Shown here: positions 4,044 to 6,126 of the stretch, piece by piece
How the letters are laid out: each line of letters opens with the position of its first letter
How positions within the stretch are numbered: position 1 is the stretch's first letter
Virus record (IMG/VR): IMGVR_UViG_2531839477_000014
Length of the DNA: 36,374 bases
Strand: one strand, 5' to 3'
Source: a virus
Lineage: Duplodnaviria; Heunggongvirae; Uroviricota; Caudoviricetes
Made by a program: the position numbers and the translations under genes
The notes under the pieces: model-generated
The model's database searches: none
The model's input: the letters and a program-made list of their open reading frames with translations, nothing else
What the model was told of the DNA's origin: nothing

Positions 4044-4556
4044 TTTGTTCTCCACGTATATGCGCTGCACCGCGCTGAATTCGGGTAAAAGGAAGCCCTC
4101 ACCGTCCGGCGATTATTGAGTCAATTACATTTCCATAAATGCCCCCGTAGGGGCGGTTAGTTTCTCCACAAAACAGAGAAGAACACCTGCGGTGGCAGCC
4201 GCCCGGATGGATTGGGTTATGAGCCCGTCGTCCGGTGATGCTCTTCTCTGTTTTGTAAAAAGGACGGTACCAGCCGGAAGCAAGGGTACAAGCTGGTACC
4301 GCCAGGACTACACACAGCATAAAGTTGTGGTGCCGGGTGCCTCCCGGTGCCTGGCGAAGGTTGCACACCAGGCGGGTGGGTATCCACAGAAGGTCGACTG
4401 TCAGCCTCAACCTTAACCCGCGTGCGCTGAGCCGCATTCACCACAACGCTAAGGATTCTCTTTGGTTGAAAATACTTAGCTGTTATGTGCCTGTCTTTTC
4501 ACCACTTCAGGCTCGGTGGTATCCTTTTAAGCCCGTATACATAAAAGGAAAATCAA

Positions 4557-4802
4557 ATGACTTTTGATGAAAAAGAACTTGATAATGCAATTAATAAAAT
4601 CATCGTAACGTCGCTCTTTTCCTGTCTCAGCGACACTCAGCAGAAACAGTTCTACGAATCGGCTTTCAACATGATCGAGCGTTGTTGTTTCTGCGATGCC
4701 GACGAGTTACCTGAAAAAATCAGGAAACAGTTGGCTGATGCTCTTCGAGTGCGACTTTCTGACCAATTTTCTGAAATGTGCTCTCCGAATTTGGACAAAT
4801 AG
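4557..4802 (+). CDS. hypothetical small acidic protein, 81 aa
   Basis: ATG preceded by AAGGAA Shine-Dalgarno at 6 nt spacing; convergent with, and overlapping by 83 bp, the minus-strand ORF 4720..4995. Confidence 0.45.
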   Translation: MTFDEKELDNAINKIIVTSLFSCLSDTQQKQFYESAFNMIERCCFCDADELPEKIRKQLADALRVRLSDQFSEMCSPNLDK

Positions 4803-4995
4803 AAAAAGGCCATTTCCATTCAGGGTCTGATGGAAATACTTCAGCCTGTTCCAAAGCACGGCGTAAAGAGAACACAACTCCAGCCATAATCTGATGTTTC
4901 CCATTGGTCCAGCTATCGCCGCTCTGATCTACAGGGGCGGCTATGTCGTATGACCAAACGACTTCACAGTTATTGTTTAAAATCTGGACTTTCAT
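4720..4995 (-). CDS. hypothetical protein, first gene downstream of predicted PL (91 aa)
   Basis: ATG at 4995 with AGGTG Shine-Dalgarno 6 nt upstream; sits where lambda has N and HK022 has nun; no Arg-rich motif, so not an obvious N homolog. Confidence 0.45.
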   Translation of the reverse strand: MKVQILNNNCEVVWSYDIAAPVDQSGDSWTNGKHQIMAGVVFSLRRALEQAEVFPSDPEWKWPFSICPNSESTFQKIGQKVALEEHQPTVS

Positions 4996-5111
4996 TTCAT
5001 ACACCTGCTTTAACATGAGTGCCTAGTGGCACAACATGACTCAACGAATCATCCTGGACTTCATATGCCCCAGGCGGCTACTTCGTGGGCGTCCTGCCTG
5101 TTCGTTATCTT

Positions 5112-5149
5112 TGATATAAAATCTAACTTAACTTAGTTATTATGGCAAG
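5112..5149 (-). promoter_or_regulatory. candidate PL promoter with OL operator
   Basis: On minus strand: -35 TTGCCA (plus 5143-5148), 17-bp spacer, -10 TAGATT (plus 5120-5125); overlaps operator-like motif ATCTAACTTAACTTAGTT (5121-5138) shared with the cI-cro intergenic region. Confidence 0.5.
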
Positions 5150-5154
5150 AGACA

Positions 5155-5180
5155 GCACCAAACTTTTCTTAGTTCGGTGC
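5155..5180 (-). terminator. possible weak terminator hairpin downstream of cI
   Basis: Imperfect inverted repeat GCACCAAAC / GTTCGGTGC (one mismatch) between cI stop and PL -35; no strong U-tract. Confidence 0.25.
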
Positions 5181-5201: not shown

Positions 5202-5828
5202 TTAGAGTTCGTATTGAACTCCTTTGACTACACCAATGATAAGGCAATTACCATTGATAGGGATGTTGGGATACCGAGGATTTAATGGCACTAAAAACTT
5301 TTGAGGGCCATCGATGACTAATTTTTTTACTGTAGCTTCGTTTGTTCCATCAAGTCGAGCGATGACTATTTTTCCATGACGAGGTTCTGCATCTGGATCT
5401 ACAATCACTGTTGCGCCTTCTGGTATTGTTGGGAGGCCATTAGGGTTAGTCATGGAGTCACCTTTAACCTCTAATGCAAATGAGTTATCACCAATCTTTA
5501 ATGATGTATCTACCCACTTGTCCACTTCACTAAACACTTCTGCTGCCCTGCACTCAGTAAACTGCCCAGCCTGAACCCACGATATTACAGGAACTCTGCG
5601 CATGTTTGTGACGAGTTTGCCTTCAAACTCAGCACCATAAAGAATGTAATCTATTGACGTATTGAAGAACTTCGCTAATTTCGAAAGTGCCTCCCCACCA
5701 GGGGTATTGATGTCTTTCTCCCAGTACCCCACAGCAACATCGCTTACTCCACAAAATTTACCCAATTCTTTCTGGGACGTTCCGGTAACTCTTCTCAGAG
5801 CTTTTATACGCTGACCAACCGTTTCCAT
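5202..5828 (-). CDS. CI-like prophage repressor (N-terminal XRE-type HTH + C-terminal S24 LexA-like peptidase domain)
   Basis: HTH segment QRIKALRRVTGTSQKELGKFCGVSDVAVGYWE; C-terminal GDSM serine motif and downstream lysine typical of self-cleaving S24 repressors; divergent from cro. Confidence 0.9.
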   Translation of the reverse strand: METVGQRIKALRRVTGTSQKELGKFCGVSDVAVGYWEKDINTPGGEALSKLAKFFNTSIDYILYGAEFEGKLVTNMRRVPVISWVQAGQFTECRAAEVFSEVDKWVDTSLKIGDNSFALEVKGDSMTNPNGLPTIPEGATVIVDPDAEPRHGKIVIARLDGTNEATVKKLVIDGPQKFLVPLNPRYPNIPINGNCLIIGVVKGVQYEL

Positions 5829-5850: not shown

Positions 5851-5913
5851 CTAAGTAATCTTAGTTTTTATTGACCAAAGATAGATTTGTAATTAGCATC
5901 TAATAAAACTTAG
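5851..5913. promoter_or_regulatory. OR operator region with PR promoter (and presumably PRM)
   Basis: Palindrome CTAAGTAATCTTAG (5851-5864) and related CTAATAAAACTTAG (5900-5913); PR as -35 TTGACC (5871-5876), 17-bp spacer, -10 TAGCAT (5894-5899); GGAG Shine-Dalgarno before cro ATG. Confidence 0.55.
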
Positions 5914-5925
5914 TTTGGAGGGCGT

Positions 5926-6126
5926 ATGACAACTGACGATATCGAAAGCTACTTCGGCAGTATTGAGAAAGTTGCTGCTTTTTTCGGCATAACAACTGAA
6001 GCCGTTTATCAGTGGCGAAACCGTCCGGGCCAGTTAATTCCAAAAGGACGTGCAGCAGAAGCTGCATATAGAACTTGCGGACGGTTGCCATTTAAACCTG
6101 AGCTTTATGAAAAATCTAATGGATAA
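5926..6126 (+). CDS. Cro-like DNA-binding protein (66 aa)
   Basis: Small basic protein transcribed divergently from the repressor and directly downstream of predicted PR; YdaS/Cro-like HTH region. Confidence 0.7.
   Translation: MTTDDIESYFGSIEKVAAFFGITTEAVYQWRNRPGQLIPKGRAAEAAYRTCGRLPFKPELYEKSNG

Follow-up and report, generated by a model that had tools for sequence, protein, structure and literature searches.

A convergent, overlapping pair of small genes at the PL-proximal position of an SfV-like prophage and its possible expression as an excludon

Organization of the locus

The stretch of viral DNA analysed here (the window; 36,374 nt) contains an SfV-like lambdoid prophage, in which two small ORFs of opposite orientation (ORF81 and ORF91) converge on each other and overlap at their 3′ ends on the PL side of the repressor gene. 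The features considered below are the following.

1369-1441: tRNA gene beside which the prophage is integrated, downstream of proA
1459-2622: integrase gene
4254..4469, minus strand: STnc100/PasD-like sRNA element, downstream of the ORF pair on the PL strand
4256..4303, minus strand: leftward intrinsic terminator with a 13-bp stem and UCCUUUUU behind it
4490..4523: junction element GCCTGTCTTTTCACCACTTCAGGCTCGGTGGTAT, delimited by alignments, immediately upstream of the ORF81 ribosome-binding site
4557..4802, plus strand: ORF81 (81 aa, ATG start), the rightward gene of the pair
4720..4802, both strands: double-coding stretch of 83 bp, made up of the 3′ ends of ORF81 and ORF91
4720..4995, minus strand: ORF91 (91 aa; orf33 of phage SfV), the first gene after the PL-like promoter
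5037..5108, minus strand: structured leader RNA (~62 nt) with which the PL transcript begins, immediately preceding ORF91
5120..5148, minus strand: PL-like sigma-70 promoter (TTGCCA, 17 nt, TAGATT; 9/12 in a consensus scan)
5121-5138 and 5157-5174, both within 5121..5174: OL-like operator repeats CTAAnnnnnnCTTAGTT
5202-5828, minus strand: S24/HTH cI-type repressor gene of the immunity region
5926-6126, plus strand: P22-Cro-type gene of the immunity region
Immunity region: CP76-type cII gene

A preliminary description of this DNA, made from the sequence alone, had given the coordinates of both ORFs, their lengths of 81 and 91 aa, their convergence and their 83-bp overlap, all of which were confirmed from the ORF listing. 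The good Shine-Dalgarno sequences that it ascribed to both could likewise be read upstream of the ATGs, as AAGGA (7 nt before the ATG at 4557) for ORF81 and as AGGTG (6 nt before the ATG at 4995) for ORF91. The minus frame can be read from further upstream (4720..5016, 98 aa), in which case the ATG at 4995 is internal and gives the 91-aa form. Because all ORF91 relatives begin with MKVQ, we take 4995 to be the real start; PGAP also picks this position, and the ATG at 5016 is preceded by no Shine-Dalgarno sequence, which makes the 98-aa form unlikely.

The same description had placed PL and OL at 5112..5149, with ORF91 as the first leftward gene behind them. This placement is reasonable given the promoter-like sequence at 5148-5120, which overlaps the operator-like repeat at 5121-5138, and given the recurrence of the operator-like motif, which is found twice more between cI and cro (5851-5864 and 5900-5913). 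ORF91 is indeed the first gene leftward of this PL-like promoter. The PL operon encodes no N-like protein according to the ORF list and to family profile and PHROG searches.

Over positions 4151-5107 the window is 99.3% identical to phage SfV, in which the minus ORF is orf33, annotated as "unknown". The identity with SfV ends at window position ~5107, which coincides exactly with the predicted PL transcript start, and the repressor/operator/cro module to the right of ~5107 is common to phages Kati, 689R6 and 569R4. By these alignments a mosaic joint lies at the +1 of PL.

Substitution patterns point to two protein-coding genes

Substitution patterns (pN, pS and stops) were compared over 7 distinct diverged lineages. 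Outside the overlap, codons 1-54 of ORF81 gave a pN of 0.17 and a pS of 0.61 (ratio 0.28), and codons 1-64 of ORF91 a pN of 0.16 and a pS of 0.51 (ratio 0.32), with no stops in either frame. The remaining five frames in both segments contained 1-9 stops and had ratios of 0.8-2.0, with the exception of the wobble-aligned antisense frame, whose ratio of 0.38-0.43 is a known artefact. Inside the overlap pS dropped to 0.35 in the ORF81 frame and to 0.29 in the ORF91 frame, as is expected there because both strands code. Judged by these substitution patterns, ORF81 and ORF91 are both real protein-coding genes under purifying selection.

Existing annotation holds one of the two genes. In RefSeq/PGAP and in the SfV record only the minus ORF is annotated and ORF81 is missing, and since frames antisense to real genes frequently lack stops, the choice of PGAP and of the SfV authors could mean that SfV orf33 is the only gene and ORF81 a chance antisense shadow ORF. 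We consider this very improbable, as 54 of the 81 codons of ORF81 lie outside ORF91 and there show the pN/pS of 0.28 at saturated synonymous sites, the frame is open in every diverged lineage, its strong ribosome-binding site is conserved, and other gene callers do call it. The substitution pattern, in other words, contradicts the reading of ORF81 as a shadow. The frame that behaves like a shadow is instead the 122-aa form of ORF91, which has a pN/pS of 1.67 and was rejected as a gene form. This long ORF91 (122-162 aa in some lineages) reads on through the antisense of ORF81, its apparently conserved Cys/His tail is the antisense of the most conserved motif of ORF81, and its frame is truncated in the window and in Salmonella. 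With RefSeq annotating one of two genes, a conserved protein family is systematically missing from annotation.

Gene callers differ in which of the two genes they report (L006, L009, L010, L013 (3001-3369 or equivalent); L014). In some records they give an ORF91 of 122-162 aa and skip ORF81; in other records ORF81 is called and ORF91 skipped, and no fetched record annotates both.

The two genes occur together

Protein searches retrieved ORF91 relatives at 50-68% identity, and for ORF81 they first gave near-identical copies only. When the DNA around the diverged ORF91 relatives was fetched and searched for ORF81 by tblastn, each of these loci turned out to contain an ORF81 relative (59-63% identity) on the opposite strand and in convergent orientation. 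The sparse protein matches to ORF81 are thus explained by gene callers having called just one gene per record. An exhaustive search extended the ORF91 domain to distant proteins at 40-51% identity, and their loci hold a convergent ORF81 relative at 33-44%, which brings ORF81 relatives overall to 33-63% identity, present in each ORF91-holding locus. A 428-aa repeat protein from the exhaustive search (P0064) is an Ig-like repeat protein and was therefore discarded as spurious.

In total, an ORF81 relative accompanied ORF91 at 170 of 170 loci (160 of them contributed by two viral-contig scans), always convergently. These loci comprise 37 distinct protein pairs from Escherichia, Salmonella and Klebsiella hosts; contigs taken at one genome per species yielded one weak locus only. 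With the short ORF91 forms the overlap measures 74-83 bp, and it grows to 125-231 bp in loci whose ORF91 frame continues further. The convergent overlap of the preliminary description is therefore real and is conserved across other lineages. Taken together, the selection on both frames and the co-occurrence in 170 of 170 loci indicate, at the level of sequence, an association that is more than chance. A few copies have one broken partner (ORF91 in L016, ORF81 in L150), so loss of one gene seems to be tolerated, at least in the short term.

At a coverage of at least 80%, 425 of the 5426 complete E. coli genomes contain the cassette, for which RefSeq has just one hypothetical protein. The pair is hosted by SfV-like prophages and also by Rac-like prophages with YdaS/YdaT modules and other repressors; overall it is usually, though not always, first after the repressor.

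Two variants of the locus may be mentioned separately. In L017 (3501-4079) and L111 a helical extension of ~85 aa precedes the ORF91 domain at the N-terminus, giving fusion proteins of 192-198 aa, and a convergent ORF81 relative is again present. In a Salmonella prophage (L004, 1552-2706), the repressor gene and the ORF91 relative are separated by a gene for a 384-aa protein with an HSDR_N domain (restriction-enzyme-like), which is read from the strand of the repressor; this is possibly a lysogen-expressed defence gene in the rex position.

Properties of the encoded proteins

Both ORFs had been described as family-less, which holds for Pfam, NCBIfam and PADLOC and fails for PHROG: ORF81 matches phrog_3311 (residues 1-81 of 81, E 1.2e-55) and ORF91 matches phrog_3195 (residues 1-98 of 98, E 6.4e-70), both over their full length. 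These families have no assigned function and are not recorded as a linked pair. Neither protein gave a significant match to Pfam, NCBIfam, PADLOC or PDB sequence profiles, the fold search with both models returned no significant structural neighbour, and the sequence and structure searches thus provided neither protein with a homologue or fold relative of known function. The SfI paper contains nothing on this gene.

Both proteins are acidic. ORF81 (pI 4.56) is predicted to form a three-helix bundle and ORF91 (pI 4.95) a beta-hairpin with helices, in AF2 models that are moderately confident only (pLDDT 71 and 72, respectively). No membrane segment was found in ORF81 or ORF91, the top 19-residue hydropathy being 0.8-0.9. 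Metal binding by ORF81 via its CCxC motif was considered and dropped, since only one Cys is invariant across the family.

By its position, first after PL and with terminators downstream, ORF91 holds the place of N or nun and might be taken for an N-type (or Nun-type) transcription antiterminator. The preliminary description had already pointed out that it lacks the Arg-rich motif of such proteins, and the composition bears this out: at a pI of 4.95, ORF91 has 2 arginines in total and at most 2 in any 12 residues, and it therefore does not resemble an N- or Nun-type protein. The homology and structure searches that had been proposed were run and revealed no similarity of ORF91 to any antiterminator family. 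Lambda N and P22 gp24 are basic, with an N-terminal Arg-rich, boxB-binding region, which ORF91 does not have; they are also essential and conserved partners of a nut site, whereas phages that share the leader described below, and the genes downstream, carry unrelated genes in the slot of ORF91. Moreover, ORF91 is not the first gene after the repressor in some prophages. An antiterminator role for ORF91 is in our estimation extremely improbable; the composition of the protein and the swappable nature of the cassette contradict it, and on these sequence grounds ORF91 is not N-like.

Conserved elements flank the pair on both sides

The leader RNA that separates PL from ORF91 is conserved in 51 phage records. 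It combines an outer stem with two hairpins, the first of them small and invariant, and between these contains the stretch CCCACGAAGUAGCC, which does not vary either. Among 15 distinct sequences, compensatory changes occurred in 10 of the 14 predicted pairs, and the outer stem was found as CGAAC/GUUCG, GUCAUC/GAUGAC, CCACC/GGUGG and GGAAC/GUUCC. A covariance model (R1) scored the leader at 91 bits as the sole copy in the window, the next best hit reaching 13 bits, and comparison with Rfam gave no match. In 5 further temperate phages the leader likewise directly follows the repressor gene, and its position beside the repressor is seen in phages of Escherichia, Salmonella, Yersinia, Pectobacterium and Aeromonas. 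A copy was also detected (R1, 76 bits; L027, 1501-1574) in Providencia phage vB_PreS_PR1, a T5-like, virulent phage, where it is situated in the terminal repeat, upstream of small early genes and far from any lambdoid immunity region.

On the other side of the pair, the junction element GCCTGTCTTTTCACCACTTCAGGCTCGGTGGTAT precedes ORF81 in all contexts and is also found before ymfI of e14 and before SfII_36, with a variant before SfIV_36 and in Kati. It might serve as a promoter, as a 5′UTR structure or as a recombination joint. Two alternative 5-bp stems (GCCUG/CAGGC and ACCAC/GUGGU) can be drawn in it in a pseudoknot-like arrangement; paired changes affect both stems in L009 and G-U pairs favour the plus strand, with few independent changes. 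The folding of the element is not thermodynamically remarkable, and it is not a stable hairpin.

Further along the PL strand, the sRNA-like element at 4254..4469 resembles Rfam family RF02076 (STnc100) over the full model length, with a score below the threshold (41.4 bits against a gathering threshold of 47, E 2.7e-7); the STnc100/PasD family is set in context in bioRxiv 10.64898/2026.05.13.724894. Conservation of the block around this element (4152-4526) extends to 3057 of 5426 E. coli genomes. In e14 it is annotated as a protein, "YmfH", and in a genome identical to the window as a frameshifted pseudogene; the protein annotation is probably spurious. The element ends in the intrinsic terminator at 4256-4303 (-27.3 kcal/mol, z -3.7; none of 200 shuffled sequences folds equally well), which separates ORF91 from yfdR, xis and int, and a second hairpin is present at 4140-4155. 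Transcripts from PL must pass both the terminator and the second hairpin to reach yfdR, xis and int. In these N-less phages, read-through of the terminators between PL and xis/int may depend on the leader RNA, a candidate that lends itself to testing.

The PL-proximal slot carries exchangeable convergent pairs

SfIV, SfII, e14, ST64B and others retain both sides of the slot (4152-4526 and ~5043-5107), and the part in between is swapped. As far as comparison of these sequences can show, the ORF81/ORF91 cassette moves as one unit. In heteroimmune relatives it is replaced by unrelated genes in the same convergent layout, amounting to at least 5 unrelated cassettes, as follows.

e14: ymfI / ymfJ, overlap 63 bp
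SfIV and Kati: 144-aa gene (SfIV_36) / 68-aa ORF, overlap 29 bp
SfII: 63-aa gene (SfII_36) / 68-aa ORF, overlap 39 bp
Yersinia YeP1: convergent pair after the same leader, overlap 4 bp
Aeromonas pAEv1818: convergent pair after the same leader, overlap 30 bp

In e14, SfIV/Kati and SfII the shared junction element is closely followed by the AAGGAAA ribosome-binding site of the rightward gene, and YeP1 and pAEv1818 each have a relative of YmfJ as their PL-sense gene. These YmfJ relatives (L028, 1663-2190, in pAEv1818, with 67% identity over the N-terminal 43 aa; L024, 1593-2083, in YeP1) are followed by a convergent overlapping gene, so that the ymfI/ymfJ-type pair also looks like a conserved module.

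Proposed expression of the pair as an excludon and alternative readings

A scan of positions 4557-4995 found no terminator-like site. ORF81 and ORF91 are thus convergent neighbours without a terminator between them and with coding regions that overlap by 83 bp, which is the arrangement of an excludon; given this overlap and the missing terminator, each transcript would run antisense into the other gene. We give about an even chance to the reading that the pair is a two-gene mobile accessory cassette in the PL-promoter-proximal slot of an N-less SfV-like prophage, expressed as an excludon. ORF91 would be translated from the PL transcript, directly after the structured leader RNA, so that its synthesis would require inactivation of the cI-type repressor. 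ORF81 would be translated from an opposite-strand transcript starting at or just upstream of the junction element (4490-4523). While PL is silent, ORF81 would be expressed; upon induction, PL transcription would collide with ORF81 expression, antisense pairing would silence ORF81, and ORF91 would be made. The two small, acidic, cytoplasmic proteins may have a target in common or may act upon one another, for instance as a lysogen-phase factor and its lytic-phase antagonist; that the pair is never found apart makes one of these two relations the most likely. The promoter of ORF81, the reciprocal expression and any relation between the two proteins or exclusion phenotype are inferred.

A consensus scan for sigma-70 promoters gave none above threshold upstream of ORF81. 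By eye, a TGnTATnnT motif resembling an extended -10 can be made out at the junction, with a speculative start at GCCTGTC.

The overlap could also reflect compact packing, and the broken partner in L016 and in L150 counts against an excludon as well. ORF81 and ORF91 would then be independent small accessory genes, linked because they lie between two recombination joints, and their overlap would have no regulatory meaning. Phage genomes are compact and short 3′ overlaps common, the overlap varies from 4 to 83 bp among analogous cassettes, and the conserved flanks could act as joints that move anything between them. This reading is nevertheless weakened by the complete linkage and by the recurring design: the two genes co-occur in all 170 loci, also in those with relatives at 33-45% identity and next to different repressors and neighbours, at least 5 unrelated cassettes share the convergent layout, and the e14 analogue shows overlapping transcription (PMC12288877). 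We regard an incidental overlap as possible and appreciably short of probable. The pair might, alternatively, constitute a toxin/antidote or exclusion/anti-exclusion module with the logic of P22 SieB/Esc, in which one protein damages the host or a superinfecting phage and is counteracted by the other, which leaves the prophage free to grow lytically. Consistent with such a module are the obligate linkage, the placement of the genes for opposite expression phases and the equivalence of the slot to that occupied in other lambdoid phages by nun, sieB and rex; in Rac, moreover, sieB itself converges on PL-side genes (PMC12288877). Against it stand the one-sided loss in some prophages, the lack of a match to any PADLOC defence model, the absence of a membrane segment, unlike in SieB and RexB, and a layout that is that of neither a type I nor a type II toxin-antitoxin system. 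Neither protein is thus a membrane protein of the SieB/RexB type or a match to a known defence model, both strands encode conserved soluble proteins, which departs from the small hydrophobic toxin and non-coding antisense RNA of type I, and the genes are convergent with no HTH, RHH or AbrB match, which departs from the co-directional operon and DNA-binding antitoxin of type II. We deem a module of this kind unlikely, and the exclusion role suggested in the preliminary description finds no support in these results.

Beyond the excludon proposed for this pair, the PL-proximal slot may be a standard "socket" for interchangeable convergent two-gene switch cassettes, RNA-bracketed, whose antisense-coupled partners belong to the lysogenic and the lytic phase. 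This wider proposal is tentative and rather doubtful at present, and might span N-less lambdoid prophages including SfV, e14, ST64B, Rac-like prophages and Yersinia and Aeromonas phages. If true, the brackets would be an undescribed 62-nt leader, which could be a put-like, protein-independent antiterminator, and a junction beside an STnc100/PasD-type sRNA, and ORF81/ORF91 would be one such switch, with proteins that antagonise each other. The pair and its unrelated look-alikes offer a compact natural system for testing a lysogeny/lysis toggle based on convergent overlap.

Comparison with known systems

In the early-left region of HK022, which is N-less, putL forms a structured RNA directly after PL (PMC9378689). 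The locus studied here resembles HK022 nun/putL in having no N and in having an RNA of ~60-70 nt immediately behind PL and a non-essential accessory gene next in line, and the leader fits HK022 put in position and size, with two internal hairpins plus an extra closing stem. In contrast to HK022, the leader has this closing stem and no second copy after PR, and ORF91, unlike Nun, contains no Arg-rich motif. Identity of the leader with HK022 put was rejected, as blastn, nhmmer and covariance models gave no match, with no hit in the HK022 immunity region, and the second copy is absent; the leader is a candidate put-like antiterminator.

Compared with SieB, which is larger and acts as an exclusion protein in the membrane, ORF81 is small, soluble and helical and matches no defence model. 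The arrangement in Rac is nonetheless alike, as sieB converges from the opposite strand on the small PL-side genes ydaF/ydaG beside racR and forms a recorded convergent excludon (PMC12288877), and the ORF81/ORF91 cassette itself occurs in Rac-like prophages.

The closest parallel is e14 ymfI/ymfJ. These proteins have no detectable sequence similarity to ORF81 and ORF91, and YmfJ is basic (pI 9.1) whereas ORF91 is acidic. The pair nevertheless sits in the same slot, which runs from the STnc100-like element and junction to the PL leader beside a cI-type repressor, and a rightward gene preceded by AAGGAAA again converges on a small PL-sense gene, with an overlap of 63 bp compared to 83 bp. Late in the SOS response ymfJ RNA and YmfJ protein go up, and ymfI changes little (PMC11002266). 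Both ymfI-ymfJ and Rac sieB-ydaF belong to the core convergent overlapping transcripts of 58 K-12 transcriptomes (PMC12288877), and the presence of ymfI-ymfJ in this core set makes the antisense interference between the two genes that was suggested in the preliminary description plausible by analogy. The best-supported reading is that ORF81 and ORF91 form a convergent, excludon-type prophage accessory pair like ymfI/ymfJ of e14.
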